DNA of 64,000 nucleotides, taken from NCBI GenBank assembly GCA_044892505.1, contig CM097882.1:239754001-239818000 (forward strand), written 5' to 3'. Shown here in pieces: positions 29,101 to 58,132 of this stretch. How positions within the stretch are numbered: the stretch's first letter is position 1; the number at the start of each line of letters is the position of its first letter. The DNA is from Schmidtea nova. Lineage: Eukaryota. Position numbers and translations under genes: made by a program. The notes beneath the pieces were generated by a model. That model saw only the letters and a program-made list of their open reading frames with translations, made no database searches and had not been told where the DNA came from.

Positions 29101-30046
29101 TGAAGAAAAAAGACACAAGACTAAGTTCATGTAATTATTTATTAACATAGACAATGAGTGGTGAGAAAAGCTCGCGTTTGTTTTTTTGAAGTGGATACAC
29201 AGTATGCAGATATCGCGCAAGAAGTTTATATAAAATTGTTGGGTATTTGCGATGTTTAGTCGGTGCTGTTAGTCTGACTCCTCGGTGTTCTTTAAATTTG
29301 ATTCAATAAAATAACCCAACACAGAAGAATTTATTTGTAACAATCACACTTTTGACACACTAAGTCTCTTTAAAATTTCACAATAACTTTTATCACTGCT
29401 TCTCCGACTTCGCGTAGGGATAAGTCTCCCCAAGGAAGATCTCCCTTTCTGGTACACTGGAATAATAAATTTGGTTTGGAACTTTTCAAATATCGCTCTT
29501 AACTCCTCACTTGCTGAATTCACTCACTTTTTCTTCGACCATTCTGGCAAACTTTAGTATTTGTCGTTCCCTTTTATACTGTTTCTGGTGATTGGTTTCC
29601 CACTTCGCTGCAACTGTCAAATGGTACTTTACGATTTGACGTTTTAATTTTCCATCTGTCGGTTACTCTCCGGGTCTCCTCCAAAGTTATTTTTCTCAGG
29701 AATTATTACCTGTCATATTGCTTGTCCGGGTTTCCCACACTCTCCGGGTTCTCCATTGTCTCGGGTTTCCCATTTGCTCGGGCTTTCCCTTAGCCAATTA
29801 ATTATTAATTAATATTTTAATATTTTAATTATTTCTTTCTGGGGACCCCCCATTGACTTTGTTTTATTATTTTTGGATTCGTTTCAATATTCGGCATCCA
29901 CCCATACCAATTTCCCCCGCTAATTCTCGGTTTTCGAATTTTACCTAAATTTTAATTAATTTTGAAAATTTTATACTTTATTGATTGTTACTAAGTTTTT
30001 ATGATTTTTATTTTTGTATTTTTCTAATTTTTACCAAACCCCAACA
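29101..30046 (-). repeat. 3' LTR, ~946 bp (TGTTGGGG...CTTCA)
   Basis: Begins TG directly after a PPT. Contains TATATAAA (29225-29232) and AATAAA (29138-29143) and ends CA. The first 62 bp recur at 46852-46913. The left boundary is inferred. Confidence 0.8.
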
Positions 30047-30169: not shown

Positions 30170-30230
<61 letters not shown>

Positions 30231-30357: not shown

Positions 30358-30407
<50 letters not shown>

Positions 30408-30744: not shown

Positions 30745-30762
30745 TAATAATAATTAATAATA

Positions 30763-30841
<79 letters not shown>

Positions 30842-30860
30842 TTGATAATAATGATGATAG
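30745..30860. repeat. (AAT)n microsatellite
   Basis: Near-pure AAT tract. Confidence 0.95.
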
Positions 30861-31462
30861 TGGCAATGATAAATGATTTCCCAATTTTATGTCGTGAATT
30901 TATGAAAATAATACTGATGAATTATCAGTGTACTTTATTACGTTACACGCCAGAAGTTGTTTTGACACATCAGTTTGCCACTATTAAATTCCTGATCATT
31001 AATTCACTTCATGCTGATCATAAACAACAAAGTTATAAGCTTGTATGTTTATGAAAATAATAATCAAAATAATAATGATAAATTACGGGTATAATTTATA
31101 TATTATTTTCTTTTTTAAATTCACTGATTTTCGTCATGCTTTTACAGTTTTGATGCCACTGTTTCGGAGCTTACTTTTCACTTGGAACGATTTTATCTCG
31201 AGGGATTAATTTCCTCCTCGGTGAACAACACTCACTCTCCGCGAGACTATTTGAATCAGAACTAGCCATTTATCAAAGCTGTCAAATTTTCTTTATCGAG
31301 AATTAAAGAATATTTATGATAGTTACATATTCCACCTACTAAAAGAAAACTTATTCGGGACTCAGAACTGCTTTCTCTGTGAGGGTATGCCTATTGGAAA
31401 ATTGGCGTTTGTTTTTCTCTCATTCGTCAGCCAGTTTGCCTATATTACCAGGTTCATCATAT

Positions 31463-32061
31463 CATTTCATTATCTTGGTTTTCGAGCAAATCGAACCGGT
31501 GTTTTCATTATTAAACAGAATTTGGATCTATTCTTAAGTAAGATTTTAATACTTTCTTTTTATTATTGCATTTATTATTTTTTTTTTGATTTATAACTTT
31601 AAATTTATTATAATTAATTTTTTTTTGAATTTATAAATTTGAATTTCTTAATAATATGTTTATGTGATCATCTAATTCATTATTTTTCAGTGGCTACTGT
31701 GCTCCAATGTTTCAATGACAATCATACCATTTCATTATCTTGGGTTTCGAGCAAATCGAACCGGTGTTTTCATTATTCAATTAAACAGAATTTGGATCTA
31801 TTCTTAAGTAAGATTTTAATACTTTCTTTTTATTATTGCATTTATTATTTTTTTTTTGATTTATGACTTTTCTTAAGTAAGATTTTAATACTTTCTTTTT
31901 ATTATTGTATTTATTATTTTTTTTTTGATTTATAACTTTAAATTTATTATAATTAATTTTTTTTTGAATTTATAAATTTGAATCTCTTAATAATATGTTT
32001 ATGTGATCATCTAATTCATTATTTTTCAGTGGCTACTGTGCTCCAATGTTTCAATGACAAT
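31463..32061. repeat. Tandem duplication (units 31463-31722 and 31728-32061) with an internal ~65-bp re-duplication
   Basis: Near-identical CATTTCATTATCTTGG...CAATGACAAT blocks. Confidence 0.92.
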
Positions 32062-32245
32062 GTTTCAAAATTCATACAATTGTGTACACAGTCGCTAACT
32101 ACTGTCGCTACGCATCTGACTCGTAAAAGCATAAAACGAATTATTCTTTATTATTACAATAATAATGAATCGGTATGAAATATACGTTGTCAACAATTCT
32201 TTTTGTTTTATTATTATTAAAATAAATTTTAATAGTTGGAATTAC

Positions 32246-34346
32246 GGTGACCGGACAAAACAGAACAAGACAAAACAGAACATGACAAAACAGAACATGA
32301 CAAAACAGAACAAGACAAAACAGAACAAGACAAAACAGAACAAGACAAAACAGAACAATGACAAAACAGAACATGACAAAACAGAACATGACAAAACAGA
32401 ACATGTGGAAAAAAAGTTATATATTATATTACATTATTTTTATTTTACATTATTATTGTACATATTATTAAATTATTATTTTACAACTGGAGGTTGGCCA
32501 TTTTACATTTGCAGCGATTTGAATTACAATCGAATTTACAATTACAGTATTCCCCAATTTTTATAAAAACACTTTTGGAAATATTTAACTTTAAATAATT
32601 TCTATAAATTCTTTATTCTTTCCTAGTGCGATTTTTTCTATAAAATTTAACTGACTTTTATACTTTTTTCTACCTTGTCAGAAAGGAATTGATCCTATAA
32701 GTATCTCTATTGCAGTATAATATTATCATTATAGATTTGTATTTCAAGTGATACAGTTAAATTAAAGCTTTAAAATAAATAATAAAATCATGGAATATTC
32801 AATCACAAATAAAGAAAATAAATGTCTATTGTACCAAGGCTATGAATATACAAAGTATAGGGAAAACCAAGACTGAGTCGTCACCTGGAGATGCAGAATC
32901 TACTTTTCCACGAAATGCTGAGCATTGTTGAAAACACAAGGAGAAAACATCGTTGGAGAGGTCCCTCAACACTGCCATCAATCAAATCCTCAAAAAGCAC
33001 AGGCAAATATTTTAAAGGCTAAGATTAAGAAGGACATAAAAGCAATTGGTGCAACTCCAAGAAATATTCTGGGAAATGCCTTAGCATTAGTAAATAGCGA
33101 TGTTTTGGAACATTTACCAAAGCAATCCTCACTCACAAGAAATCTTGGTAGACATAAGGAAACTTTTTCTTTGCCGAATCCAGCTACAACTGATTTTATT
33201 ATACCAGAGAAATTTCTTGATCTCATTTTATATGATACAGGAACTGATGATCCAGAAAGAATATTGGCAATCGGGAATAATGATATTGCCTCAGAGCTAC
33301 ACAAGGATGTCATTTATGGAGACGGAACATTTGATAAAGCACCTAACATGTTCTATCAGCTGCATACATGGCATGCTAAGATTGGAAATTCATATCCTCC
33401 ATGTATATATTTTCTTTTACAAAAAAAGAATATGAGTACATACAACAGGATGTTTGTAATACTAAAGGAATTGGTGCCCAATATGACACCTCAAAAAATT
33501 CTACTGGATTTTGAAAAAGCATGTATGTCTGCTGCTCAAGCTGCTTTTCCACAAGCAGAAATAAAAGGATGCTACTTTCATCTCAGCCAAAGCTTAATTA
33601 GGAAGATCAACAGTGTTGGATTGAAAGCACTATATGAGTCCGATATTGACATAAAGTTGAAACTGAAGTCGTTAGCTGCACTCTCCTTTGTTCCAATCTT
33701 AGATTTAAAAACTGTCTTTGACGAACTAGCTGCAACATTTCCAGATGAGGATGCCTACAATCAAATATTAGCATATTTCTGCTCAACCTACATTGAAGGA
33801 GTTGCTGGAAGATCACCACTCTTTCCAATAAGAATATGGAACCATTTCGAGGCTGCTGCTGAGCGATCTCCCAAGACAACAAATTGTTGTGAAGGTTTTC
33901 ACAACGCATTAAATTCAATATTTCATTGTAGTCACCCAAGCATATGGAATTTATTAGATGGACTAAGACGAGATATGGCTTGTCAGCGATTAATACTAGC
34001 CAATGCCCAGACAGGTCGCCAAGAAGTGATAAAAAAGAAGTACGAAGCCATTGCTCTCCAAGTGTCAATAGTTGTGCAGGAATACCACGCTCACGAAGAC
34101 AAATTGAGGTATTTACGCAGAATGGCCAACCTCCAGTAATACTTACAACATCAAGATTAGATGTAAAATAATATGTACAATAATAATTTAAAATAAAAAT
34201 AATGTAATATAATATATAACTTTTTTTCCACATGTTCTGTTTTGTCACTGTTCTGTTTTGTCACTGTTCTGTTGTGTCTTGTTCTGTTTTGTCATGTTCT
34301 GTTTTGTCATGTTCTGTTTTGTCTTGTTCTGTTTTGTCATGGAACC
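32246..34346 (+). mobile_element. MULE/Mutator DNA transposon, 2101 bp, with TIRs built of 15-bp tandem repeats
   Basis: GGT...ACC termini; 8-bp TSD GGAATTAC (32238-32245, 34347-34354); ~230-255 bp TIRs with (ACAAAACAGAACATG)n arrays. Confidence 0.95.
32790..34139 (+). pseudogene. MULE transposase (FLYWCH + DDE) with two in-frame stops near the N-terminus
   Basis: The ATG at 32790 is in frame with ORF 32925-34139. LLYQGYEY...TWRC...C...H.H; YGDGTF, ILLDFEKA, KGCYFHLSQ, TTNCCEGFH. TGA codons interrupt the FLYWCH part. Confidence 0.92.
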
Positions 34347-34789
34347 GGAATTACAGTCTACTTCTTTTTAATAGAAGGCATTTTTTTTTAAAATGTATAG
34401 TTTATACAAACGGTATTTATGATGACAAGTGGGTAAAGTAGTGATCTGCTTTCAATATCACAGTGTTGATAAAAGTTAAATGGCAACTACAATTTTTTTG
34501 CTTTGTATGTCAGTGTTTCAATTTAGCAATTGAGCATCAATATTCTCCTGTAGTGTTTTCGATCATCTCATTTATAATTTGTTTCTTTTGGGAAATGAGA
34601 AGTAAAGAGGTATGAACTTAATATTGTATTCCCAATGATAAACACAGTGTGACGGGAACTACAGAACGTAAATGTTTTACTTTATTTATTCAATTATATG
34701 TTTAATGTAAGTTCGATTTAATATTTATTTTACTTAACACTATGCGAAATTTGAAATTTAATAATAATTCGAATGATTGTGTGACGTCG

Positions 34790-34814
34790 TCAACAATAAT
34801 AATAATATTAATAA

Positions 34815-34846
<32 letters not shown>

Positions 34847-34900
34847 CTAACGGCGATAACAACAATAACAATAACAATATTAATAATATAATGACAATAA
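34790..34900. repeat. (AAT/AAC)n degenerate microsatellite
   Basis: Triplet tract. Confidence 0.9.
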
Positions 34901-35279
34901 CAATAGCAATTATTATTATTGCTTCTAACACTATAAAGTATAGTGACTATAGTAATTTATATAATGATGACGTTAATAATACTAATTTCTATAATTAGGA
35001 TGATAATGACACTGATAGTATTTACCTCTAACAACAGACCCTTCCCACTCGTCGTCCAGGGTAGCCAAGCCCCGGCGATTGGGATTGTTTTGTTTGTTAG
35101 TTATTTATTTTATTTTTATCTCTCTTTATAACAATTACTTATTTGCTTTATAAGTTGACTGAAAGTTAAAGCTACTGGGTCTAATTGGTGGGTTGCCATA
35201 AATAAACGAATCCACAATATTTTACGATTATTTATTTTATAAATAAATCATATACAATTTAATAAATTTCAGTTAATCA

Positions 35280-36743
35280 TCAATCCATTCTTATCTCGAT
35301 TCGATTAGATCCATGCTTGTAACGAACAATTGTTTCTTCTCGTTCATAGATAACACCGCTGTATAATATGGTTTTGCTGACTTCAATTGTCGAATCTGCT
35401 TTCCTTCTCAACTCGTTTACTTCTCTAGGCATTGGGCCATATCCTAACGTGGGTTGGAGTTTCACAATGTTCCAGTTTGGTATTGTTTCCAGACTCTCTT
35501 CAACTGGATCTATCAATGTTTCCACTGGATAACTTAGATCAATAATAGGAACTTCGCTCTCTTCCATTACTATGTCTTCATTTGTTAGATCTATTGCTTC
35601 CATAGCCATGTTCTCCGGGATTTGTGCTAACTTTTGCCTATCGGTTCCTTGAGTTAATTTGGATGTGTTGGCATATAAAATTTTGTATTCCTTTAGAGAA
35701 TACTTTCTTGATGGTTGTTTTCTGGGAATCACTATATCGTCAATCCATTGATTCTCTACCCGTTGGTATATCTTCCGTATCGTTTTGACATCCTCCAGCG
35801 CAGAGTGTATCCCAACCTGCGTTTCTTCTCCGCATATTTCCCGTGCTACCGTCTGCAGCTTGAACCACTCTCCTCTTCTGGTTACGTTCATTCTTTGTAG
35901 TATTTGTGCAGCTGCAAGATCCCGTATCCCATACAGTTGATCTACCCATATTCCAAGATACTGTAGTTCGGCGTGTAAATCGTGGCCTATTAATATTTTT
36001 CCCACTGTTAGCCTCTGAATATCCTTCATTTCCGAATATTGATCATGCTGATTTCTGCTGGCTACCTCTGTAATTCCATGGATCTTGGAATTGAAATGGC
36101 CAATTTTTCCTCTTGGGGTCAAATACACGTCTTTAATTATTTTTCCATGGTAATTTATCATCGCAACTGATAAAGGGATCATTCTTTTCGTTTCCGATGT
36201 GGCATATTCCGCGTCCACAAATATTGTTCTGTTCCGAATTTCTTCCATATCCATTTTTTTCCTAATGAATGAGAGTTTCCTTTTTAACATTTCTGCTGAT
36301 ATTTTCATCAACGTTGAATCCTGTTCCTCTGATGGCTGTGCGCTTGGCCTCTCATTTGGCTCGTTTTCTATTCTTGTTTCTAAAACAATGATTGTTTCCT
36401 CATTCGCTGCGCGTATAGGTTTCGCCATGATTTCATTTTGGATCTTCCAGGACGAAAATTTCTTCAATTCCATCCACGGCTGATTCCCGTCCATTATTTC
36501 TACTGTTCCTTTGATAACATGTAGGTAATATTGTTCTTTATTGGATATTCGAACTTCGTCCGCTAACTTCATTCCCATCTTTCGGTGTATTCTGAGTATT
36601 TTAATTTTCATTTTTCGGTCGTCGATTCTGAAATAATTTGGGATTTGTAAGTTGTCTGTAATCTGGAATTTTTGCCCTGCATGGCGTCTTTGCAGCTTTG
36701 CATAGCTGTCTAATGTGGATCTTGTCCATTGAATTTGTTCCAT
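35280..36743 (-). CDS. Retroelement accessory ORF, 487 aa, with REX4/ISG20-like DEDDh 3'-5' exonuclease
   Basis: ExoI FVDAEY (36207-36218), YLTPRGKIGHFNSKIHGIT, ExoII ILIGHDLHAE, IRDLA, ExoIII HSALEDV (35790-35807). Intronless, same strand, ~410 bp downstream of the polyprotein stop. Confidence 0.88.
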   Translation of the reverse strand: MEQIQWTRSTLDSYAKLQRRHAGQKFQITDNLQIPNYFRIDDRKMKIKILRIHRKMGMKLADEVRISNKEQYYLHVIKGTVEIMDGNQPWMELKKFSSWKIQNEIMAKPIRAANEETIIVLETRIENEPNERPSAQPSEEQDSTLMKISAEMLKRKLSFIRKKMDMEEIRNRTIFVDAEYATSETKRMIPLSVAMINYHGKIIKDVYLTPRGKIGHFNSKIHGITEVASRNQHDQYSEMKDIQRLTVGKILIGHDLHAELQYLGIWVDQLYGIRDLAAAQILQRMNVTRRGEWFKLQTVAREICGEETQVGIHSALEDVKTIRKIYQRVENQWIDDIVIPRKQPSRKYSLKEYKILYANTSKLTQGTDRQKLAQIPENMAMEAIDLTNEDIVMEESEVPIIDLSYPVETLIDPVEESLETIPNWNIVKLQPTLGYGPMPREVNELRRKADSTIEVSKTILYSGVIYEREETIVRYKHGSNRIEIRMD

Positions 36744-36748
36744 TCTTA

Positions 36749-36831
36749 CTGAAATATTTATAATTAAAGGTTTATCAATATAAAATTTGAAGCTAGGGTT
36801 AAGATGAAGTGCCCAAAGGGTACTGTCTTAC
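36749..36831 (-). other. Putative 83-nt 5'-UTR intron / splice acceptor for the exonuclease ORF
   Basis: Donor CAG|GTAAG at 36831 and acceptor TATTTCAG ending 5 nt before the ATG. Confidence 0.45.
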
Positions 36832-37151
36832 CTGTAGCTGTATATATATAAATATTAATAAAAAAATTACCAATTTAAAATTTTGAAATCGGATTTATTT
36901 AAAAAATTTTAAGTTTAAAGGATAAGCGCTTCCTTATATGCCCCTTTCAAATTTTCTATAACCTATTTCCTACTTTCCTACTCCCCCTTGTCTTTTAGTG
37001 TTAGCCAATCAAATTTATTCTTCCTTTCTTTCGTCGGAAAAGCAGTTTTACATAAACATTGATGATACTATCACTGAAAACACTGAATAACATGTAAAAA
37101 ATAATACTACTACTACGTTATCAAAATTGCATGCAAATTAATCATGTCTTA

Positions 37152-40100
37152 CTACACAATTGTTTCTTCATAGATCATCCAAGGTCTCGAAGGCTCGGAT
37201 TGAATCGTAGAAGGTCTGTATATTTTTATCGATTCGCAAAAGACAATAGCGCCAAATGTGATGAGAAAGATTGTTAGGATAATGATGGTTATAAATAATA
37301 TCACGCACGCGATTTCTTTGTCATTGTTTATTAATGATATAGTTTTATTATTTACAATTGATTTATTGGTGATGTCATTGAAAGGCGTTGTCATCTGATT
37401 TTGGTACAGTGCATTTGAATCGCTGTCATCTATTTTGTCGTAAAAGATTTGGACGAACTTGTCCTCGACTAAAGTTACTCGCCATAGATTAGAATACGAG
37501 GTGCGACGCTGATATTTGATTTTCATAAAGACAAATTTTGACCTTGACTTTGATCGTAGTTGTTGAAATGTTAATATTTGAGATTTATTGCTGCTGTCTA
37601 AGATTGCCTGAACTTTTCCACAATAGTATATAATAGCTTTTTGATTTGGGTCTGCTCTCCAAGTAACATTTATTAACTGATTGTAGATATAAAACTGAAC
37701 TCGGTTCGTTTCGTTGATCAATTTTATCGCTTGTTGACTAGACTGAATTTCAATCCATAGATTATCGCTGACGGTTACATTATCATATAAGGATTTTTCA
37801 TAATAACGGAACAAGATATTATATGTCTGAAATAATTTCAAATTAACATAGTTTATAAAGGGTTTTCTGCTGTTCAGCGTGTCTATAGCATAATTCTGGA
37901 AGACAGTTTTCACTTGTTGGGTTTCTTGTGGTTCCCAATGTACATTAATTCCATTAACAACGGGTTCAATAGAAACAAGATGCTCTAACCTTTTCGTCCA
38001 AACATCGAGATGTACCATATTATATATTTTTGTAGTATTCCCTTTAGAGCTTAATTGTGTTATTAGCCACTGATATTTATAATTCATCGTTAATTGCCGT
38101 GCCACGTGAGTGTTTTTATTATAATTCAATCTAACTGGGGGTTCAAAATAATCTAGTAAATTATTTACTTCAATTTCCTCTTCCCTTTCACCGTGAAAAA
38201 ACCATACGATCTGGGTACATGTTGCATATATGTGAATTTTATCCATCAATGGGATTCTTTTTGTTGCATACGAGGGAAAAACTCGTATTGCACTTATACA
38301 CAAGACATTTGCCATCATTATTGTTGAAATCAACAAGACTTTGTTGATATAGTTTAGTGGAGCTGAGTTTTTTGTAAATTTTTGTTTTACTGCTCCTTCT
38401 CCGTCTTTAATTAGTTTTGATCTCAATGGATATCGTGTTATTTCCTCCGACGGAACTTTCTTGCACCGGTTTACATGAACAATTATTGTTCCAGCTTTTT
38501 TATTATTCTGTGGGCGTAATTTCAAATTAGTTTCTGTAGTATCACATACGATATATGGTCCTTTAAACGGTCGCTGCAATTTTGGGGATAATCCCTTTGT
38601 TGGCTCTGGTTTATTCACATAGACTAAATCACCAATTTTAATATCATGTGCATGAGTGCGCTTGTCGTAGCACTCCTTATATGCTTCTTGCTGATGTTTT
38701 ATTTTAAGTCCGGCTTGAATCCAAACTGTCTGGAGTCTTTCTTGCATAATCACTTTATAATCTGATACATCCATATATCGGGAAATAGGCGACTGAAATT
38801 TCAGATCGATAGGCATATTGTTTCTTCGTAAGTACATGAGATAGAAAGGTGTTTCACCGGTACTTTCGTTCACTGCATTTCTGTATGCATACAAACATGG
38901 TTTAATGAATAAATCCCAATCTTTTTGTTTTCTATTTACGTATGACGATATCATATTAATTAGTGTTTCATTGAATCTTTCCACTAATCCATCTGTCTGT
39001 GGGTGATATGGTGATGTACTGATTTTCATTATTCCAAATAATTCTGTAATTGATTTGAACAATTCGCTTTGAAAATTTGTTCCTTGGTCAGTAAGCATTT
39101 TCTTTGGTGCCCCATATCGAAATATTATGTTTTCCACATACATCTTTGCAACTGTCTCAGCTTTCTGGTTTTGCATGCGGTAGGCTTCTGGCCATTTGGT
39201 TAAATAATCACAGAAGACAATAATGTATTTATTGCCGTTTGTCGTTTCTGGTAATGGACCGACAATATCCATTGCCGTCATTTCCATTGGTGCCACCGGT
39301 ACAGACATTGGTTTTAAAGGAACTCTAATTTTTCGTCCTGTGTTTCGTCTAGTTAAGCATATTTCGCAAGTATGACACCATTGTCTGACATCTTGTTCTA
39401 TAGTGTCCCAATAGTATTTTTGTTTTAATCTTGACAATGTTTTTCGAGCTGATAAATGCCCTCCTAATGCTCCGTCATGATACAACAATAATAATGATTT
39501 TCTATGTTTTGTTGGAACTATAATTAATAAATTTTCATTTCTTACGCATTTTAGCAAACCATCATGTATAATGTATTTATGTCTTTCCTCAACAATGTGC
39601 TTCCAGTCGCTTTCTTTTCTAATTGTAACAGCCTGTTGCCGTAGCTGATTCAATTCATCATCCTTTTCTTGATCACTTTGCAATTCCTTCATATTATTTG
39701 CCGTTTTCATTGCCATAAATATAGTGTTTTCATACTTTGTTTCATATTGAACAACGTCCTCCTCCTCTGAAATTCTCGACAGCGCGTCTGCATTTGCGTT
39801 CGACTTTCCTGTACGATATTTGATCTCAAAATCATATTCCTGCAACGCAATTGACCATCTTATCAGCTTACTTGCCGAGTCTCTGTGCTTCATTAGCCAT
39901 TGTAATGGGTTATGATCAGTGAAAACAACAAATTTCCTACCGATTAAGTATTGCCTGAACGTAGTTATCCCATATACTAATGCTAACGTTTCTTTTTCAA
40001 TCGTAGAATAATTCTTTTCATGCGGTCTTAACGTTCGACTGGCATAAGCGATAACGTGATCTTTCTCACCTTCTACTTGTTGACCTAGTATCGCCCCTAA

Positions 40101-43100
40101 TGCAAAATTACTAGCATCTGTCATCAATAAGAATGGCCTTTTAAAATCAGGGCATCTTAATATAGGTTGTTTCATTAAGCTTTCTTTGAGTGCATCGAAT
40201 GCTTCTTGTTGAGCCGTTGCCCATTTAAATTTTGCTTGCTTTTTTAACAGCACATTTAAAGGTTGTGCGACATGCGAAAAATTTCTTATAAATTTTCTGT
40301 AATAACTAGCTAGTCCTAGAAATTGTCGGACTTGGTCTATATCTTTGGGAATCGGATATTTCTTAATCTTTTGTACATTTTCCGGATTCGGCTGCAATCC
40401 TCGCCGGGAAATAATATGACCTACGTAAACAACTTCAGATTTTCCCCATTCACATTTTGACGGTTTTATCTTTAGGTTTGCCTTTAACAATCGTTTAAAT
40501 ACTGTTTCCACATCCCTCAGATGTTCCTGAAAATTGTTTGAAAATATTATCATATCATCAATATACACTAGTGCATGTGGGATGTCCCGTAATACGAAAT
40601 TCATACCTCTTTGAAAGGTAGCCGGTGCTCCCGTTAAACCAAACGGTAAGACATTAAACTCGTACAGACCTTTACCGTCTGAAAACGCAGTTTTTCTTCT
40701 GTCCTCTTCTTTGACCTTAAACTGATTATACCCTTTGTTAAGATCAATAACAGTAAAGAATTGCACCTCCCCCATTTGATCGAACATTTCTTGGGGAACT
40801 GGAATAGGGTATGTATCTTTTCTTGTGACTTGGTTTAACTTTCGATAATCTACACAGAATCGTAGATCACCATCTTTCTTTTTCACTACCACGATTGAAG
40901 CTGAAAATGGTGATGAGCTATCTCTTATTATTTTGAATTCTTTCATTGCTTTGATTTGCCTATCACTTTCTTCTTGATGAATGTATGGAATCCTATATGG
41001 CCTCAATTTTATAGGGGTTTCGTCCAACAATGGTATCTCATGTTCAATCACTTGAGTGAGTCCCAAATCATATTCATGTTTCGCGAACACATTCCTATAT
41101 CTCTTTAGTAGTGCCGTAAATTCTTGTTTTTGCTCATCTGTCAAATCATTACTTGTAATTTGAGGTCCTTTGTAAATCTTTATATTTCTGGGCAACCTTT
41201 GTACTTCTTCTTGTTTTATTTTTGTCAGTTTCCCCAGCTTTGTTTTGGGTTTCATCTGAATAGATTTTGTGCTACAATTTGCTAATCTTACTGGTACGGT
41301 TTTGTCTTTAACTTTTACTACTTCATCGCACATTGGTACGTCGTACTTCTCTATCAATTTTTGATTTGGTTCAAATATACATTCTTCTTCGGAGACATTC
41401 ATTACATTGGCATAGTATATAACTTCGCTTTTTGGTGGTATTTCCAAAGTTTGATTTAAAAAAACTTGTCCCGCTTCGTGCACAACTTCACCAGATAGTC
41501 CTTTCATCAATTTTCCCATTCTTAAATCAAGAGAAATTCCTTGTAATTGTTCCATAACGTCCATTCCAATCAAGCATTTGACAGGGCTTTTTCTCATTAC
41601 AGATACCCAATGAGTTACTTCTTGATTTCCAATATTCAGCTTAACTTCCAATTTTCCAACGATATTCAATACATTATGCGTCATTGATTTAATAATTTTC
41701 GTAGTTGGCTTCATTCTTGCCTTCTCCTGACTCGTCAAGAGATTCTCAGATACTATGCTGTGACTTGAGCCTGAATCCAATAACGCTTCAACTTTTCGTC
41801 TATTAAATTGTATGTCAATTCGAGGTTGTTTTCCTCCCAATTCTATGGTCATCAATGCATAACTACAAGGTAAACCAAGCATATTCTTTCTTTCAATTTC
41901 GGCGCTTGATGGTTCAATCTTTTCTAATTCGACTTTAATCTTATCAACTGGTTTCATTTCTCTCAACTTCTCACTTGGATATACAGGAGCTGTTGGCATA
42001 AATGTCGGTGTGTACCATTTAGAGAGAGTGTCAATTCCAGTTAGTTTTGGTATTGGTTCCATCAAGAATCTGGATTCGGGGTCTATTCTACTTTTTATTA
42101 TACCCCGTCGAAACGATTTTGGCTCTGATCTGCCGCCATTGCTATCATTGTTGTGACCCTTATTTTTATCTTCAAATTCGCATAGTGATTCTTCACTTTT
42201 CAGATCATTTTTCAATTGTGCTCTAACACTTGCCATTTCCTCATATTGATGATTTGTAATGAAGAATCTAGCCAAAAACGGAATACAACCAATAATCATT
42301 TTCCATGACCATCCGGAAATTGCATATATTCGATGAGCGGACAATATTTGTGATATTATTACTTTTATTGTTACTGCAACTACATAAATGCCAATTAAGC
42401 CTGCACAAGCTTGTCCTAAAAACATAAATCTTCCCCAAATTTTTTCCATTGTTTTAAATGTAGCTCGTTTAAAATGATCAGGTGTCAGCAAATATTCGTA
42501 ATTAACTTTTCCTTCTCCATTTGGCAGTATTGTATCAATCATCTCAGAAATCACTCGTTCCTTTTTTGATGGGAATAATAAATTTCTTTGGGCTTCTTCT
42601 ATATCTTCGCTTGCGTATAGACCCATTTGTGCCATCTTATTCATTGATGTGAAATTTACCAAGTACTCTAAATTTATTAATTCCAATTTATCTGGAGTTC
42701 TAACTCCCCGGTAGTCTGGTAACGCTATCCATGAATCTTGTGCTAAACGATATAGTGGAGCTAATAATCGATTACATTGTAGAATTTTCGGTTTGACTTG
42801 TTCTTCCAACAATATTCGAGTTATCGGTTCCATGAATCGTAATTTCCCGCCAACATTTACCGGTAATTCATTTGTACATTTCTCATATTTCGCGATTTTC
42901 ACTATACTTTCTTTGCACCTGTAACTGTATAATGCTTCTCCAAAGATCCTAGCGAATACACCATTTTCTGATATTAGCATGGGTGCTACTAAATTTGGAT
43001 TAGTAATTGCCATTGCCATTCGATTTCTAAGTATTTCCTTGTTCAACTTACAGTCGTTTAGAATCATTTCTCTATATACGTTTTCCATGATGTTTTGACT

Positions 43101-46100
43101 AAAATGAAACAAATAGTCAATTTTATTATTGAAGTAATGAGTTAATTTGATATCATCCCGGTGAATTCTTGTTTTAGCCTCATATACGATTGTTTTAGAT
43201 ACATAAACTCCTTTGTAATTTGTTGCATATACAGTTTGACCACATTTACTCGTTATGTCCTTTTTTATGAAACGCATGCCGTCTGTTGGCAATGTTGACA
43301 TTAACACTGTTGCCGTTTGTCTCGTCCAAACTGGGGTTGATCTAACTGTATTGTTCGGTTTATAATTCACATTAAAATTGTCCGGTCTTTCCCTAAATTG
43401 CTCTCCGCTCAATTCTTTGAAATTAATAGTTTTTAAATGGGATAAGTTGCATATATTAGTCTTGACATCATAGACAAGAATCGATTCCCCAGTGTGACAA
43501 CTAGTTTGTTTCATATTACAGAATGGATGAGTTTGTAACTTTCCTGTATCGTCATCAAACGACCCTTCGAATACTCTCAATTCTGTTAGATATTCCTCTA
43601 TTACTACTGCTTGTTTTATCACTTGATCATTTATTTTATACGGTTCTCCCTCACAATCGCCGTCTGATTTCATTACTCCTTTCACAATTAATGTTTCTCT
43701 GATTTGATGGTTTACTCGAGCTTTCAATCGAATTTCAGGACTAATTTTTAATTCCCCTGTTTGAAATGCCGTTAAACAGTTTTCTGGTAACACGTCCGCC
43801 GGTCGTGGAATAGCATGCATTTTTATCATCGAAGTATGGCTCCATTTGCCACAAAAGAATACGAACGTGGTTCGTTTAACGATACATTCCCTAACTTGAG
43901 AACGCCGTAAATCGGATTCTTGGTAAACATGATACTTTGCTTCATTTTCAATTTTTAATTTTCTTGGGTATGCATCTGGGCATTCTGTCATATCGACCAC
44001 AGAATAAATTTTCCCCATTTCTGTTTGTGAGCAATCGTATGCCACCAATGAAGTAGCTTGTGCAATTATTGTGCATAAAATAACCATCATGAACAGCACC
44101 CAAGGGAATATCGTAGTTTTTCTTAGTTTTGGGTCTACTTTTTCGTTCAACTTTCTTTGAGGTGGATTCTCATCTTCTTGTTTCTTTCTTTTCTTTGTTA
44201 TAGATGAATTTAATGCTTTCCACCCTCCAAGCTCTTTTATCCCTTTCATCAAACATTCATTTAATAGTCGAGCCGCAGTGTCAATCAAATTCTCAATCTG
44301 ATCTGGCCTAGTAAATGCACGAATACCAATTTCGGAAACCACATGTGTTAAACTTGTTAACACTGTTTTTCTATCGATTCCATTTTCGATCAATTTTTCA
44401 ATCCTTTCTCTTTTACAGAAATCACCCTTTTTTTCAAATTCATGCTCAATTTTTGGAAGTCTCTCTTTCACTTCCTCAACCATCCCTTTCAATTCCTCCT
44501 CAGCTTCTGGTTTTATTTTTAGAATTGGGTAAACAGTTTTAACTAGGTTTCTTATTATTCCTTTAGTTTCATCAACTTCCCGCTCTATATTTAATAAATA
44601 TTTCTTCATCTCATATAAAGTTCTAGGTTTAGTACTCCAATTATTCATTTCCACTTTCTCGACATTTGTCTCTCTGCTAATTGTAGTTTCTGCTACCTGA
44701 ATATTGACTTCTTTCTGATCATCACCTTCATCGTTAGCTATTGCGGTTTCATTTTCTCCTATTTCATCTCTCTTTTCTTCTGTGTGGGAGGATTCCCCGT
44801 TGCCAAGCATTCTCGGGTTAAATTCTTTATTTGCTATTATACGGTTAATTAAATATCCCTGACTTCCATCAGTACTTAAATATCCATATTCATCTAATTC
44901 TTGTGGCATGCATCCACAGTCGTATAAATATTCATCGTCATCCAGTGCTTCACCTTTATGTTTCAATACTATAATTCCATCTTGTCCTAACATCTCCGTA
45001 GCTCTTCTACGTATTTTCCGCACTTTCGTACACCAATGCTCTTCTACATACTCAGTTTTTCCAATATCTTCGTATTCTATTGCAATTACTAATAAATTCA
45101 ATTCTGCTCTATCTTCTCTAAGCTCTTTGCCCAATTTTCTCAGTAATCTCTTTAAATTTCTACTATATCTGGTTCTTTTAAACAGATGCGGTCGTATTAC
45201 GTTGATAATTTCTATTTTATCCTTTTGCTCAAATTCAGATTTCTCAATTAATTTCACTATTTCATTTATTTCGCTTTCATCGCCAATATATAAAACATCA
45301 GATAGCTCCATTAACACTTCCCTCGGATCACTTTTCACCATTTCACAACTACTCCTCATATTGACTATTTGTAACTCATTTTTATCTCCTGGTATAAACC
45401 CACAGTCTACCAAATATTCCTCGTTATCTAATTCTCTATTTTTAAATTTTAATTCTACTACCCATCCTTCGCATTTTTCTCTTAGTCTCCTTTTTAAATC
45501 TTTAACACAATCATAGGCTTCACATCGACAAGTAATCAGACTTTTATCACATTCATTAACAACATCAATAAAAATAAAATCTAACCATCCATTTTCTCGG
45601 AATGCTTTTCCAAATGTTTTCATCAACTCTTTGATTTCATCTCTATCTGCTAAATTTATTTGATAATAGTTTGCACACAAATTAATCACGCATTTTAGTT
45701 TTCTCATACTCAGTGACATTTGACTCAACTTTTTAATTGACATTAATATTTTGGATGACTCTTTTGCGCTAGCTTCTAGCAATTTCTCAAGTCTCTTCAT
45801 CATTATTGTAACTTTTTCGCTTTCCAAATCGTCCTTTGTACATACTCCTTTCGCTTCCGTTTCAGTCATATCCGACCCATACATCATGTGATTATCTAAT
45901 TCCTCATCAGATTCAAACTTAGACATTAAACGATCCAAGCGTCGACCCATTTCTTTCACTTGACTTTCAATTCTATCATTAAATTCGTCTGATTGAACAA
46001 AAGCAACATTTTCTGCTGGCATTCTATCATTTTGAAAACGAATTGATTTTTTTAATATTGGTTTCTGAAATTTATCGACATTTCTCGGGCATGATCTAGC

Positions 46101-46496
46101 CATATGTCCATAGCCTCGACATGAATGACATTGAATTTGGCCTTGAAGGTTCACTCTATCTCGTTGTGGTGATGGCGAAGTGGATGGAGATCTCGATCTA
46201 GCAAAACAATTACGTGAAACATGTCCTTTCCTTCCACAATTGTAGCATTGTATATTATCATTAGTTCGTTGATCTTTAATGCTAAATTTATTTAAGCTTT
46301 TTTCATTATTACCCTTCATCCAATCTGGCCACATTCGTTTTGGGCTTCGTTGTACATTATTTTTAGACCAGCATTGATTGCTATTGTGACCAATCTTTTG
46401 ACAGTGATCACATTGAATTGGAGTTGGGCTTTTTGCGATCGGTTCTTGAACCAACATTGATCGGCATGATGTCCCATCCGTTGACAATAACTGCAT
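37152..46496 (-). CDS. 3114-aa polyprotein: gag C-terminus - accessory domains - class III glycoprotein - PR - RT - RNase H - IN - second membrane protein
   Basis: CCHC knuckles; LVAYDC (44031-44048); LLDSGS (41769-41777); LRFCVDYRKLN; YIDD (40554-40565); TDAS (~40115); H..H/C..C, MDIVGP, LTDQG, GLVER; FKGPY. The true start is upstream, in the gag frame. Confidence 0.97.
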   Translation of the reverse strand: MQLLSTDGTSCRSMLVQEPIAKSPTPIQCDHCQKIGHNSNQCWSKNNVQRSPKRMWPDWMKGNNEKSLNKFSIKDQRTNDNIQCYNCGRKGHVSRNCFARSRSPSTSPSPQRDRVNLQGQIQCHSCRGYGHMARSCPRNVDKFQKPILKKSIRFQNDRMPAENVAFVQSDEFNDRIESQVKEMGRRLDRLMSKFESDEELDNHMMYGSDMTETEAKGVCTKDDLESEKVTIMMKRLEKLLEASAKESSKILMSIKKLSQMSLSMRKLKCVINLCANYYQINLADRDEIKELMKTFGKAFRENGWLDFIFIDVVNECDKSLITCRCEAYDCVKDLKRRLREKCEGWVVELKFKNRELDNEEYLVDCGFIPGDKNELQIVNMRSSCEMVKSDPREVLMELSDVLYIGDESEINEIVKLIEKSEFEQKDKIEIINVIRPHLFKRTRYSRNLKRLLRKLGKELREDRAELNLLVIAIEYEDIGKTEYVEEHWCTKVRKIRRRATEMLGQDGIIVLKHKGEALDDDEYLYDCGCMPQELDEYGYLSTDGSQGYLINRIIANKEFNPRMLGNGESSHTEEKRDEIGENETAIANDEGDDQKEVNIQVAETTISRETNVEKVEMNNWSTKPRTLYEMKKYLLNIEREVDETKGIIRNLVKTVYPILKIKPEAEEELKGMVEEVKERLPKIEHEFEKKGDFCKRERIEKLIENGIDRKTVLTSLTHVVSEIGIRAFTRPDQIENLIDTAARLLNECLMKGIKELGGWKALNSSITKKRKKQEDENPPQRKLNEKVDPKLRKTTIFPWVLFMMVILCTIIAQATSLVAYDCSQTEMGKIYSVVDMTECPDAYPRKLKIENEAKYHVYQESDLRRSQVRECIVKRTTFVFFCGKWSHTSMIKMHAIPRPADVLPENCLTAFQTGELKISPEIRLKARVNHQIRETLIVKGVMKSDGDCEGEPYKINDQVIKQAVVIEEYLTELRVFEGSFDDDTGKLQTHPFCNMKQTSCHTGESILVYDVKTNICNLSHLKTINFKELSGEQFRERPDNFNVNYKPNNTVRSTPVWTRQTATVLMSTLPTDGMRFIKKDITSKCGQTVYATNYKGVYVSKTIVYEAKTRIHRDDIKLTHYFNNKIDYLFHFSQNIMENVYREMILNDCKLNKEILRNRMAMAITNPNLVAPMLISENGVFARIFGEALYSYRCKESIVKIAKYEKCTNELPVNVGGKLRFMEPITRILLEEQVKPKILQCNRLLAPLYRLAQDSWIALPDYRGVRTPDKLELINLEYLVNFTSMNKMAQMGLYASEDIEEAQRNLLFPSKKERVISEMIDTILPNGEGKVNYEYLLTPDHFKRATFKTMEKIWGRFMFLGQACAGLIGIYVVAVTIKVIISQILSAHRIYAISGWSWKMIIGCIPFLARFFITNHQYEEMASVRAQLKNDLKSEESLCEFEDKNKGHNNDSNGGRSEPKSFRRGIIKSRIDPESRFLMEPIPKLTGIDTLSKWYTPTFMPTAPVYPSEKLREMKPVDKIKVELEKIEPSSAEIERKNMLGLPCSYALMTIELGGKQPRIDIQFNRRKVEALLDSGSSHSIVSENLLTSQEKARMKPTTKIIKSMTHNVLNIVGKLEVKLNIGNQEVTHWVSVMRKSPVKCLIGMDVMEQLQGISLDLRMGKLMKGLSGEVVHEAGQVFLNQTLEIPPKSEVIYYANVMNVSEEECIFEPNQKLIEKYDVPMCDEVVKVKDKTVPVRLANCSTKSIQMKPKTKLGKLTKIKQEEVQRLPRNIKIYKGPQITSNDLTDEQKQEFTALLKRYRNVFAKHEYDLGLTQVIEHEIPLLDETPIKLRPYRIPYIHQEESDRQIKAMKEFKIIRDSSSPFSASIVVVKKKDGDLRFCVDYRKLNQVTRKDTYPIPVPQEMFDQMGEVQFFTVIDLNKGYNQFKVKEEDRRKTAFSDGKGLYEFNVLPFGLTGAPATFQRGMNFVLRDIPHALVYIDDMIIFSNNFQEHLRDVETVFKRLLKANLKIKPSKCEWGKSEVVYVGHIISRRGLQPNPENVQKIKKYPIPKDIDQVRQFLGLASYYRKFIRNFSHVAQPLNVLLKKQAKFKWATAQQEAFDALKESLMKQPILRCPDFKRPFLLMTDASNFALGAILGQQVEGEKDHVIAYASRTLRPHEKNYSTIEKETLALVYGITTFRQYLIGRKFVVFTDHNPLQWLMKHRDSASKLIRWSIALQEYDFEIKYRTGKSNANADALSRISEEEDVVQYETKYENTIFMAMKTANNMKELQSDQEKDDELNQLRQQAVTIRKESDWKHIVEERHKYIIHDGLLKCVRNENLLIIVPTKHRKSLLLLYHDGALGGHLSARKTLSRLKQKYYWDTIEQDVRQWCHTCEICLTRRNTGRKIRVPLKPMSVPVAPMEMTAMDIVGPLPETTNGNKYIIVFCDYLTKWPEAYRMQNQKAETVAKMYVENIIFRYGAPKKMLTDQGTNFQSELFKSITELFGIMKISTSPYHPQTDGLVERFNETLINMISSYVNRKQKDWDLFIKPCLYAYRNAVNESTGETPFYLMYLRRNNMPIDLKFQSPISRYMDVSDYKVIMQERLQTVWIQAGLKIKHQQEAYKECYDKRTHAHDIKIGDLVYVNKPEPTKGLSPKLQRPFKGPYIVCDTTETNLKLRPQNNKKAGTIIVHVNRCKKVPSEEITRYPLRSKLIKDGEGAVKQKFTKNSAPLNYINKVLLISTIMMANVLCISAIRVFPSYATKRIPLMDKIHIYATCTQIVWFFHGEREEEIEVNNLLDYFEPPVRLNYNKNTHVARQLTMNYKYQWLITQLSSKGNTTKIYNMVHLDVWTKRLEHLVSIEPVVNGINVHWEPQETQQVKTVFQNYAIDTLNSRKPFINYVNLKLFQTYNILFRYYEKSLYDNVTVSDNLWIEIQSSQQAIKLINETNRVQFYIYNQLINVTWRADPNQKAIIYYCGKVQAILDSSNKSQILTFQQLRSKSRSKFVFMKIKYQRRTSYSNLWRVTLVEDKFVQIFYDKIDDSDSNALYQNQMTTPFNDITNKSIVNNKTISLINNDKEIACVILFITIIILTIFLITFGAIVFCESIKIYRPSTIQSEPSRPWMIYEETIV

Positions 46497-46860
46497 TGAA
46501 TTGGTTGTTCTTTTTCGTCGATTTGAACACGTGTTGATTTATTCATCTCAAAATTTGGTCTAAATTTTGGTGATGGACTACTTGATTGCTGGAGCCGATT
46601 GTTTCTGGCTGGAGAATTGGATCTTTCTCTTGATTCATTGATAATGGCGAAGGATTCTGATTTCGGCTTTGCACTTTTTAAATTTAATTCAATTTTCATA
46701 GCCTTTTTGATTAACTCATCGAAGTTATTGAAATCTACATAACATAAGGCTTTTTTGATTTCCCCTTTTACTCCCGCTAAGAACTGATCTTGTAATAGTT
46801 CCTTTACCTGCTTTGCCACTTCAATCTGTTCCGGTTTTACTTCGAAGGCCTTTGTTACTA
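46430..46860 (-). CDS. Upstream gag segment (capsid end + first Zn knuckle), offset by one base from the polyprotein at an A5 run
   Basis: LQDQFLAGVKGEIKKAL...FDELIKKAMKIE and CSYCQRMGHHADQC. Restoring one A at 46430-46434 fuses it to SPTPIQCDHC. Confidence 0.88.
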
Positions 46861-46913
46861 AGTTTTTATGATTTTTATTTTTGTATTTTTCTAATTTTTA
46901 CTAAACCCCAACA
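46852..46913 (-). repeat. 62-bp stub of the 5' LTR fused directly to mid-gag
   Basis: Matches 29985-30046 with one mismatch. The junction falls in TTAGTAACAA, which reads LVT in the gag frame. Confidence 0.9.
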
Positions 46914-47360
46914 AAATCTATCATGAGAAACATCAGTTAAACAAATTAATAACAGAACACATGGAAATAAATTAAATAAAACATGTTAATAATTTAAACT
47001 GAACAAAAGCGCATCAAGTATACACGTTGAAAACACAATTATAACATAAAAACATCAATTGCAGAATAAAATTACAAATTTGGAAAAATTCACATATTTT
47101 CGGAAAGAATATTTCTATTTTTATCTTAAAAACTTGTAAATTATAAAATAAAATTGATTTAAATAAAAATTTAGTAAATCTAACTAAATTAGTAAAAACT
47201 TTAATTCAAAATAAAAATTTTGGATTAAAATAAATTAACTAAATTTTTTATAAAACTTTACACAAAATAATAATTTAATTTTCCCTAAAATCGTTAAAAT
47301 AAATTTTGAAAAAATCGAAAATTCAACCTAGTATATTTGTTTTAAACACACCCCAGAATA

Positions 47361-50300
47361 ATGAAGAGTCCGAAAAAAATTTTTTATGATACACCCGCCG
47401 TTAACCAGTGCTTAGTTGAATGTCTTCACATAGACATTCCTAGCACTGGTCAGAAAGAAGATCCCGATCAAGCTATTATTTCATATAAAAACAATAACTT
47501 AATTTTTCCTTCTAGAACATCATCCTTACAACCTCTCGAAACTATGAAGAAATATAACAAAACCCAGAATTTTTCCATCAACATTAAACTATCCATCTCA
47601 AACCCTATTCCCAATTCTACTTATGTAAATACCACCGATGGAACTCTCAACCCAAATGATAATAAAATAATATCTCAAAAATCAGAGAATTTGAAATCCA
47701 ATAAAATTACAGAATCTCTAACTAAGTCTGAAGAATTCAATTCTAATTTAGAAATTTTTACTAATAAAAATTTCAAAAAGAAAAATAATGAAAATCATTA
47801 CTACTTTAATAATAAAAATTACCATTCGAATCAAGAAACGTATAATAAATCCTATAGAAAAGAATATCATAATAAAAATTTAAAAAATAAAAATTTCAAT
47901 TTCGAAAACTATGAAAAATATGATAATAACACCAATTATTATAAAAATACTGAAGAACCTAATAAAAAATATCAACTTAAAAACTATGAAAATAATAAAA
48001 ATAAAATACCAAAATTTGAAAATAAAGAAGAATATTATAACACCAATGAAATGAATACAGAAGATTATATAAAAATTAAAAAATTTAACTTTTTAAATGA
48101 TTATTATCAAAAAAAACCGAAAATATTTTAAAAAACTCGAAAAAATTCCTATAAATAGAATTATTTTCGAAATTTTAAAATCAAAAGCATTTTTTGAAAA
48201 TAGGGAAAATTTGTTTAAATTAAAAGCAAATTTCAGAGTTCCCGATAATGAAGAGTCCGAAAAAAATTTTTTGCCCCCCGCAGGGGGGCAAAAAACTCGT
48301 CCGCCTACGGCGGAAAATCAGAATGTAAATATCCCAGCAACTGAAAAAAAAGAACTATTCGGTTTTGAGAAAAACCCAAGATATCGTAACATCAGAAAAA
48401 TTAAAACTAATAAATCAATTACTCCGACAACATCAACAACAACATCAATTATCCCATCTACTTCAATTGTCCCACTCACATAAATTGTCCTACCAACATC
48501 AAGTGTCATACCAAAATCAATTGTCCCATCAATATCACTTGTCCCTTCAACATCAAAAGATCCTTCAACATCTAATGCTTTCCCTACATCTAATGCTCCT
48601 TCAACACCAAATGCTTCTTCAACACCAAAGGTTCATCCAACATCCAAAACTCCTTCAACATCAACTACCCCTTCAAAAACAACAGATCTTCCATCATCAA
48701 CTGGCCCTACTGCCACTACTCCTTCAACATCTACTGTACCTTCAACATCAACTGCTCCGTCTACTTCAACTGCTCCTTCAACATCAACTGCTCCTTCAAC
48801 ATCAACTGCTCCTTCAACATCAACTGCTCCTTCAACATCAACTGCTCCTTCAACATCAACTGCTCCTTCAACATCAACTGCTCCTTCAACATCAACTGCT
48901 CCTTCAACATCAACTGCTCCTTCAACATCAACTGCTCCTTCAACATCAACTGCTCCTTCAACATCAACTGCTCCTTCAACATCAACTGCTCCTTCAACAT
49001 CAACTGCTCCTTCAACATCAACTGCTCCTTCAACATCAACTGCTCCTTCAACATCAACTGCTCCTTCAACATCAACTGTTCCTTCAACATCAACTGTTCC
49101 TTCAACATCAACTGTTCCTTCAACATCAACTGTTCCTTCAACATCAACTGCTCCCTCAACATCAACTGCTCCTTCAACATCAACTGCTCCTTCAACATCA
49201 ACTGCATCTTCAACCCCAACTGCTCCTCATAAATCCCTCCCAAACATAAATACCACACAAATTGCTACCCACACTGTCCCGAATGATATTGCCATAGCAA
49301 ATCTGTATTACTCATTTTATAAACCCTCTATACAGATCAAAGGAAAACCTGATGAAATATTCCGTATCATTGAAAAAACTCCAGTAAACTGGGATATCTT
49401 TAATCAGGAAAGGTTAATAAAAACTGAAGATATCAAAAATTTAAACAATTCACAAATTCGAGTATTAGTGAAAGAATATGCCTCGCTCCTCTACTCACTG
49501 AACAACATTAAACAAGAAAATTTGAAACTACTTCAAGCTGCAAATGAAAACTTTATTGCATGGCAACCAATACTCGAAAAAATAGGAGGAATCACAGATT
49601 TCATTAAAATTAAGAACTTACAGAAAGAAGTCATTGAAGATTTATTTAAAAAATATCACAATATCCACACCACTCCATCAACTACTCCATCAACATCTAC
49701 TATTCCCCCAACGGCAACCACTAGTTCAACATCTACGGGTCCTTCAACATCTACTGCTCTCTCAACATCTACTACTCTTTCAACATCTACTACTCCTTCA
49801 ACATCTACTACTCCTTCAACATCTACTACTCCCTTGACCTCTACTGCTCCTTCAACAGCGACTGACCCTTCAACATCTACTGCTCCCTCAACCTCTACTG
49901 TTACTCCAACAGCCACTGATCCCTCAACATCTACTAATCCATCAACTTCTAAACAATCAAACAATATCTTCATCTTCGGTTCTACACCCTCAAATCCTAC
50001 AAATATTTCATGTAACACTAATATCCACAAATACAATACCAGATTGAATACTAAAATTATCTCTCTCCCAGATAAAGAACAGACTGCTTCCTATTACACA
50101 ACTTATAATCCAACACCCTCCGAAAAAAGAAAACCACTTGAAATATTTAAAATCATCCATAAAACTCCAATTTTTTGGGCCATCTTTAACAAAAATAAAA
50201 AACTCACCACTAAGGATATTCACTCGATGAATGAGCCAACAATTGAAGACCTGATAAATCACTATATCGTTTTCTTCTCTTCCCCTCCACTTCATCTGGA

Positions 50301-50817
50301 TAAATCAATAACATTCCAAGTAATTCATAATGATATATACAACTGGCTCCCTGCCTTGGAAATTTATGGAATCACAGACTACCTTACCCTATGCAACTTA
50401 TCAGCAAACGACATGAATAAACTTAACTTTGAATACAACAATGAAAGTACTCAATCACAAAAAGACCTCATTGAATTTGCAGGAGAATCCATGTTCAATA
50501 CTACCCAAAGACCTATTGAGAAAATTTATGCATCAGTTAGCATTATCGACCTGATGTATGACATCTCCAAATTAAAAAATAAAATGATTAATAATGAAGA
50601 AAAGAGAATTTCAATATCACACTGCAAACCCCCAACTTGGTTCCCTCTCTTATGCATCCTAGGTGAGGACGCCATCGATTATCTAGAAATATCAAAATCT
50701 GAATTCATTAAAATGTTGATTAAAGCCCAAACATTTCATAAAGAAAGTCACTTTGTATCAATTGACCTTCCTGAAGATGACCTGGATAAAATGATGTGTG
50801 AATATTTACACATATAA
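47361..50817 (+). pseudogene. Unassigned ~1150-codon ORF (one frameshift, one stop): N/K-rich N-terminus, mucin-like S/T/P arrays, duplicated unknown domain
   Basis: 47361-48131 overlaps the frame of 48097, which is open to 50817 except for TAA at 48481 (probably TCA>TAA). No recognisable family motif. Confidence 0.6.
48720..49215 (+). repeat. 18-bp tandem array (CCTTCAACATCAACTGCT, encoding PSTSTA), roughly 25 units
   Basis: Near-perfect minisatellite, with a block of GTT variant units. Confidence 0.97.
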
Positions 50818-57651: not shown

Positions 57652-57684
57652 ACACAATATTTCGGCACAGCCTTTATCAAGTGT
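57652..57684 (-). ncRNA. Minimal hammerhead ribozyme (inverted copy)
   Basis: Reverse complement of 60083-60115. Confidence 0.75.
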
Positions 57685-58132
57685 GTATTTCTATCGTTAT
57701 ATTTACTTAATACTAAATAGTAGCCTTAATTATTTTTTTAATATTTTATAATGATTTTATTGGATGAAAAAATTTATTTTAATTTTTTTGTGCGAATTGA
57801 ATGTTGATGGACGGTTTGTATTTTTTTATGAAAAAAGTCTCGGAAGCTAATCTTTGTAATGAATTTTTGAATCCCTCTTGTAGAATCTGACATTTTGTTT
57901 CTTCTATAGATGGAGTTGTTTTATGTACTTTCTCCCAGTGTTCGTAATAATTACTGGTTTTGTTTTTAGTGTGTTCATTAAGTCGGGTGCGAAAAGTTCT
58001 ATGTGTTTCTCCTATGTAAGTAGCGTCACATTTTTGACAAGAAAGTTTATATACTATATTTTTGGAAAAGCAAAAGCATCGGGTTGTGGAACGGCAAAGA
58101 CATTTGTGTTTGGAAATGTTGGAAATTGGTGG

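Follow-up and report, generated by a model that had tools for sequence, protein, structure and literature searches.

Giant Ty3/Gypsy retroelements of the Burro/GYPSM1 type are the closest described relatives of the locus reported here. In planarian Burro, according to a review, a single polyprotein carries gag, a Ubi2/SUMO-like domain ahead of a BCL-2 domain, an env related to mononegavirus fusion proteins and placed in frame between gag and pol, and then protease, reverse transcriptase, RNase H and integrase (PMC6431247). We analysed a 64,000-nucleotide stretch of the Schmidtea nova genome (GCA_044892505.1, contig CM097882.1, positions 239,754,001 to 239,818,000 of the forward strand), called the window below and numbered from its first letter. 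It holds a Burro-like element whose gag–env–pol polyprotein an earlier note on this DNA had passed over in silence. Compared by published architecture only, the element shares with Burro the order of gag (CCHC), Ubi2/SUMO-like domain, BCL-2, in-frame env and the four pol enzymes. That order and the base composition make a planarian host likely. It is smaller, at 17 kb with a 3401- or 3402-aa frame, whereas Burro exceeds 30 kb and encodes 4873–5140 aa; by Pfam, its polyprotein has none of the BIR, MATH and ankyrin domains of Burro; and it differs in having two modules with ubiquitin-like domains (UBLs), long terminal repeats (LTRs) of 0.81–0.86 kb and an exonuclease-like second open reading frame (ORF2). 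The helical domain that precedes each UBL is not described in the review's account of Burro (PMC6431247).

The other useful comparison is with TFIIS N-terminal domains (TNDs). These have no enzymatic activity; two pockets and a basic patch let them recognize short acidic motifs in transcription regulators, and those of LEDGF and HRP2 are hijacked by lentiviral integrases (PMC9987994). LEDGF also carries AT-hooks (PMC10570030). The helical domain and UBL together form a real, old and duplicated unit of the Burro-like element, and the helical half is predicted to resemble a TND.

An old module present in two copies

Both modules lie within residues 237–553 of a 3128-aa minus-strand frame (Table 1). 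The motifs quoted in the earlier note all stand where it had placed them and share a single minus-strand frame: LMKTFGKAF (45626–45600), IFIDVV (45575–45558) and LQIV (45374–45363) in module 1, and DPREVL (45329–45312), LLRKLGKEL (45146–45120), TKVRKIRR (45029–45006) and CGCMP (44918–44904) in module 2. The mutual similarity it had claimed for the two modules also held: about 150 aa align at 20–24% identity with a score of 97, which none of 2000 shuffles reached (mean 33, maximum 62). The last strand of the second UBL may follow a short insertion and extend to about position 44820. No third copy was found in the flanks.

Taken alone, the window modules gave no useful match in Pfam or PDB, and word-based homologue searches kept none of 5740 candidates in one case and none of 8000 in another, which is weak evidence by that method's own standard. 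Searching the animal's own genome (1.25 Gb, A+T-rich) with both modules returned 2210 candidates; among the 124 scored, 28 were 82–100% identical and 96 were 74–79% identical, and 22 of the 124 sit in frames of 3401 or 3402 aa. Further element groups were found by Pfam and protein searches of the genome, the counts being lower bounds. Clustering 244 module matches at 85% identity gave 26 clusters, of which three were left out of the alignment, one as a mis-registered duplicate and two as genuine ubiquitin or polyubiquitin; the remaining 23 comprise 20 from ten two-module groups and three from one-module groups with frames of 2992–3082 aa. A module was present in all 13 element groups sampled, as one or two copies by group in unbroken frames. 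Nine representative proteins matched at E≤0.001: a two-module protein, another with a complete module plus the tail of a second, two single-module gag polyproteins, and fragments. A database protein (P0002) in which a gag piece of the element and module 1 are joined to a phosphomevalonate kinase domain is likely a gene-prediction chimera.

A tree of 29 modules placed the window lineage's six second modules in one supported group (96/93) and its six first modules in another (86/90), and the duplication is therefore older than the split of these six groups. Ratios of nonsynonymous to synonymous substitution (dN/dS) were calculated for the window copy against two other subfamilies, ignoring values with saturated synonymous sites. 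They were 0.11 and 0.27 for the first helical half, 0.16 and 0.30 for the first UBL, 0.48 and 0.19 for the second helical half, and 0.07 for the second UBL (against subfamily A′; the second comparison was saturated). Elsewhere the linker gave 0.47, the Bcl-2-like domain 0.39 and 0.16, and env and pol 0.01–0.07. Judged by these substitution rates, the module is maintained by purifying selection, less tightly than the enzymes of the element.

The beta-grasp pattern previously read from the C-terminal halves was borne out by profile comparison, which identifies both as ubiquitin-like at the level of sequence. A 24-row alignment had 202 matches among PDB sequences at E≤0.01, and each of the 60 listed is a ubiquitin or UBL chain (ISG15 3e-6, IQUB 1e-5, NEDD8 3e-5); ubiquitin and UBLs also made up 55 of the 59 matches of another search. 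The likeness spans beta1 to alpha2. At E≤1, Pfam recognized ubiquitin in 8 of 24 members and Rad60-SLD in 6, and the ESM Atlas returned ubiquitin-family clusters at 0.78–0.82 for both modules, which we treat as a lead only. A single-sequence fold of module 2 was of low confidence (pLDDT 49), gave no reliable model of this half and was not used. As the earlier note had observed, a terminal GG is missing from both window modules; one of the 29 modules has any GG, an internal one, in its C-terminal stretch, and the C-terminal Gly-Gly of a conjugatable modifier is thus absent. Proteasome-shuttle UBLs of the Rad23/Dsk2 type keep a conserved Ile44 hydrophobic patch. With the register taken from the PDB profile alignment, both window UBLs have Lys at the equivalent position; among the 29 modules, 2 have Ile there and 11 have any of I, L, V or M. 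This lack of conservation argues against a Rad23-type shuttle and weakens the proposal that the UBLs recruit the proteasome. What is conserved is an acidic run, D-D-D-E, followed by L.D.G..P (Glu in 27 and Gly in 28 of 29).

The helical half and a possible adaptor role

AlphaFold2 predicts the helical half of module 2 as two helical hairpins (residues 5–18, 21–33, 38–51 and 59–77) with helices 13–19 residues long, at a pLDDT of 90.8 and a pTM of 0.79. Fold searches matched the model over its whole length to TND, LW and IBD domains, tied with fragments of HEAT repeats. The modelled bundle is right-handed, resembles a HEAT-repeat pair and has the expected length of about 80 aa, as in the TND family (TFIIS LW, MED26, Elongin A, PPP1R10 and the IBD of LEDGF/HRP2). 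Its fourth helix is net basic in 24 of 29 modules and carries an L-x-x-L-G pattern in which the Gly is kept in 27 of 29. Several features set the bundle apart from the family. Family members have five helices and the model four, TND helices 3 and 4 corresponding to one helix of the predicted bundle; the bundle has no Trp at the family's Trp position, is fused to a UBL and is encoded by a mobile element. A profile comparison with a TFIIS-type set gave P = 7e-4, yet the reversed control also scored high, and an IWS1-type set gave no signal. Homology of the bundle to the TND family is suggested, not proven.

A library of viral structures gave no match to the bundle at E≤0.001, and the helical profile found 32 PDB sequences (E 0.027–9.2) that form no coherent family. 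The first-ranked Foldseek match, to MIT/ESCRT domains, was rejected at a root-mean-square deviation of 10.4. So was a likeness of one relative's helical half to the sigma-70 non-essential region (ESM Atlas 0.96), which lies below the recognition threshold and with which structure and context disagree. The host genome itself contains, at about 216.19–216.25 Mb, a tandem array of some 28 TND-encoding units spaced by about 1.2 kb, as well as smaller IWS1-like clusters elsewhere.

We tentatively propose, at a rough probability of 0.4, that the module is a protein-docking adaptor that connects Gag or the integration complex with transcription and chromatin factors of the host. This is the simplest reading of a GG-less UBL joined to a TND-like bundle whose last helix is basic, placed right after the nucleocapsid and often accompanied by an AT-hook-like motif. 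The last of these, an RGRP motif between the UBL and the Bcl-2-like domain, occurs in 9 of 23 relatives scanned, outside the window lineage, and falls under the cut-off of Pfam AT_hook (E 0.14). The bundle and the UBL would have been captured to engage host nuclear machinery. They would be present in a one-to-one ratio with Gag and would need to be freed by the element's protease. The basic fourth helix with its pocket would then read acidic, TIM-like motifs of host proteins; alternatively, that helix may pack against the acidic patch conserved on the UBL to which it is joined. The UBL itself would serve as a non-conjugated interaction surface and not as a proteasome shuttle of the Ile44 type.

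A more specific form of the adaptor, which we regard as doubtful, is an element-encoded tether of the LEDGF kind: a captured TND/IBD-type domain, with an AT-hook in many lineages, would accompany the integration complex and dock it to integrase and to factors of the elongating polymerase. The modelled bundle shares an IBD-like fold with LEDGF/p75, and the AT-hook-like motif stands near the module in the relatives mentioned above. The module has no PWWP domain, however, and LEDGF belongs to the host and is hijacked by integrase, whereas here the domain is encoded by the element. Were the tether real, a retroelement lineage would be carrying an integration cofactor fold instead of hijacking one.

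Since Burro already has UBL and Bcl-2 parts, the idea of an anti-death cassette is not new. The new and testable part is the TND-like bundle, and with it a defined, repeatable unit of four-helix bundle and UBL in at least 13 groups, which have expanded in this large genome. Open-access literature listings yielded no account of a TND-like domain in an element of this kind, and the helical domain may already be annotated in the primary Burro papers or their supplements. Should the bundle prove to be a true TND, a mobile element would encode its own version of a fold for which lentiviruses rely on LEDGF and which organizes transcription elongation. The module also offers a small, soluble target of 150 aa for asking how such elements select their integration sites or live alongside stem cells.

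The Bcl-2-like neighbour and other readings

The Bcl-2 domain that the earlier note had placed beside the modules is real: a 10-row profile matched Bcl-xL at E 1.1e-7, and the corresponding domains of sister groups exceed the Pfam Bcl-2 cut-off. Members of the Bcl-2 family carry NWGR in BH1. Here BH1 is degenerate, with DRKT in its place, and none of ten aligned relatives has NWGR, while a BH2-like GGW is kept. The domain combines the BH1–BH2 core homology of the family with a likely tail anchor, a hydrophobic segment (residues 814–832, hydropathy 2.34) retained in all 11 relatives listed. Since this segment, the first hydrophobic one, follows the Bcl-2-like domain and ends at the start of env, it likely acts both as a Bcl-2-type tail anchor and as the env signal sequence. 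Gag, both modules and the Bcl-2-like domain precede it and so would face the cytosol or the particle interior.

This arrangement raises the question of whether the module serves its neighbour, as a scaffold unrelated to death effector domains that stays on the membrane-anchored fragment and recruits or blocks cell-death regulators or their ubiquitin ligases, so that host cells survive. We think this rather unlikely. The module immediately precedes the Bcl-2-like domain in all 11 relatives listed, Burro elements carry several apoptosis and ubiquitination domains (PMC6431247), and Burro1 is reported second-hand, in a citing paper, to protect stem cells from caspase-mediated death through its RING/BIR part (PMC13465017). 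Against it, the modules contain no death-pathway motif and are separated from the Bcl-2-like domain by a poorly conserved linker of 60–80 aa; moreover, the Bcl-2-like domain of this lineage has lost NWGR and, at a dN/dS of 0.39, evolves faster than all but one of the four module halves. Whatever anti-death activity exists is ascribed more simply to the Bcl-2-like domain, which is separate from the modules.

Alternatively, the module could be a decoy or adaptor for ligases, proteases or SUMO-type readers of the ubiquitin/UBL system, shielding element proteins from degradation or dampening antiviral signalling. The integral, GG-less UBL with its strongly conserved acidic surface and the Rad60-SLD matches fit this reading, which is nonetheless unlikely: the Ile44-equivalent position is not conserved, and the equally persistent helical half is left unexplained. 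A likeness to the tethering motif plus UBL of HOIL-1L and SHARPIN found no support among the matches listed (60 of 307 in one list).

Less probable still is a purely structural part in the particle or in polyprotein handling: the module would act as a spacer, or as a unit of late-domain type, set between the nucleocapsid and the membrane anchor, and would engage no nuclear protein of the host. The position directly after the zinc knuckles, the presence in every group sampled and the separate identities of first and second copies across six groups are consistent with such a part. Yet copy number varies between one and two despite unbroken frames, and both halves resemble host regulatory domains, not capsid parts.

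The earlier note had instead seen a pattern like that of death effector domains (DEDs) in the second helical segment and BH3-like endings that lack the conserved Asp, and had suggested that with the Bcl-2 domain these could form a vFLIP/vBcl-2-like anti-death cassette. In its full form this reading makes the helical halves DEDs with BH3-like ends, in a cassette that blocks FADD/caspase-8. Death folds, including the DED, are six-helix bundles. The confident model instead has four long helices in two hairpins, and host Death and CARD profiles matched the helical half at shuffle level (P 0.25, with 15 of 40 shuffles as good, and P 0.27, with 32 of 40). DED, CARD and Death are absent among the 25 of 39 Pfam families listed for 23 members, and no death-fold chain was among the best 50 matches of any of three PDB fold searches, which does not in itself exclude the family. 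An exon-wise search of the host genome found 16 Death and 5 CARD matches; by contrast, no DED exceeded the Pfam cut-off, one weak match allowing no DED alignment to be built, and a vFLIP-type target is therefore not evident. BH3 motifs have Asp after the small residue in L-x-x-h-G-D. That Asp is present in 1 of 29 modules and replaced by Lys in 10, including both window modules, so the BH3-like endings were not confirmed. Compared with viral FLIP and viral Bcl-2, the element likewise is virus-like and has a divergent, tail-anchored Bcl-2-like domain, whereas it has no death effector fold, its UBLs interrupt the helical repeats and all parts belong to one polyprotein. Tandem layout, a length of about 75 aa, the L-x-x-L-G pattern, and single members among 23 touching PYRIN (E 0.08) or a poxvirus Bcl-2-like family (E 0.004) lend the DED reading a superficial fit, but it is largely refuted and very improbable; what stands of the proposed cassette is tandem, GG-less UBL modules beside a Bcl-2-like domain.

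The element, its copies and the rest of the window

Table 1. Features of the Burro-like element in the window, in the 5′ to 3′ order of the element
Feature	Position	Strand	Basis or remark
5′ LTR remnant	46852..46913	−	62 nt
Upstream gag remnant, other frame	46316..46897	−	gag start missing
Whole open frame holding both modules	37152..46538	−	3128 aa, stop to stop
gag nucleocapsid zinc knuckles, three CCHC, in main frame	46089..46412	−	Pfam
Module 1, helical half	45585..45824	−	Alignment; predicted TND/HEAT-like four-helix bundle by homology to the modelled half
Module 1, UBL, no terminal GG	45354..45584	−	Profile against PDB; Pfam in relatives
Module 2, helical half, four predicted helices	45105..45338	−	AlphaFold2 pLDDT 90.8, pTM 0.79; fold searches
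Module 2, UBL	44862..45104	−	Profile alignment
Bcl-2-like domain	44202..44651	−	10-row profile against Bcl-xL, E 1.1e-7
Hydrophobic segment, residues 814–832	44043..44099	−	Hydropathy 2.34; directly before env start
env, Monjiviricetes-type fusion glycoprotein, in frame between gag and pol	42150..44042	−	PF24664, E 4.9e-84
pol: aspartic protease, reverse transcriptase, RNase H, integrase (Ty3/Gypsy order)	39000..41831	−	Pfam
ORF2, exonuclease-like (RNase_T/DEDDh)	35280..36827	−	PF00929, E 6.7e-5, 23.9 bits against a cut-off of 24
3′ LTR	29237..30046	−	About 0.81 kb; 99.5% to LTRs of two other copies; TG...CA ends

The copy in the window occupies 29237–46913 between 4-bp target duplications. 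It is defective, and the functional argument concerns the element family. At the 5′ end about 1.4 kb is missing, which takes away most of the LTR together with the start of gag; gag is split across two frames, and a MULE transposon with terminal inverted repeats lies inside the 3′ region at about 32243–34347. Three other copies are 17.0 kb each, and their LTRs (0.81–0.86 kb) are 99.6–100% identical within a copy, indicating recent insertion; unbroken copies have the 3401- or 3402-aa frame. ORF2, an uncommon accessory gene for a Gypsy element, was found in all three. Downstream of integrase the polyprotein continues for about 430 aa (37152–38470, minus strand; dN/dS 0.15–0.19) with no Pfam match, and includes a signal-like segment (residues 2731–2749) and a final membrane segment (3076–3094); this is possibly a second surface protein.

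Elsewhere in the genome, at least 150 near-identical ubiquitin/Rad60-SLD matches, most in long open frames (up to 2290 aa), apparently belong to another repeated element carrying ubiquitin. At least 150 BIR matches, mostly in frames of 399–406 aa, represent a multi-copy BIR gene that is perhaps an accessory part of a Burro1-like family.

Within the window, just outside the element, 47346–50817 (plus strand) contains open frames of 261 and 777 aa, with no Pfam match, and an 18-nt repeat encoding PSTSTA. A frame with Penelope-like reverse transcriptase and GIY-YIG domains (58024–59988) lies between perfect 504-nt inverted repeats at 57629–60138, and a very small element with direct terminal repeats of about 160 nt and an integrase core spans 12058–13834. 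At 22044–23012 (minus strand) there is a host-like exon with Ig and thrombospondin-1 domains.
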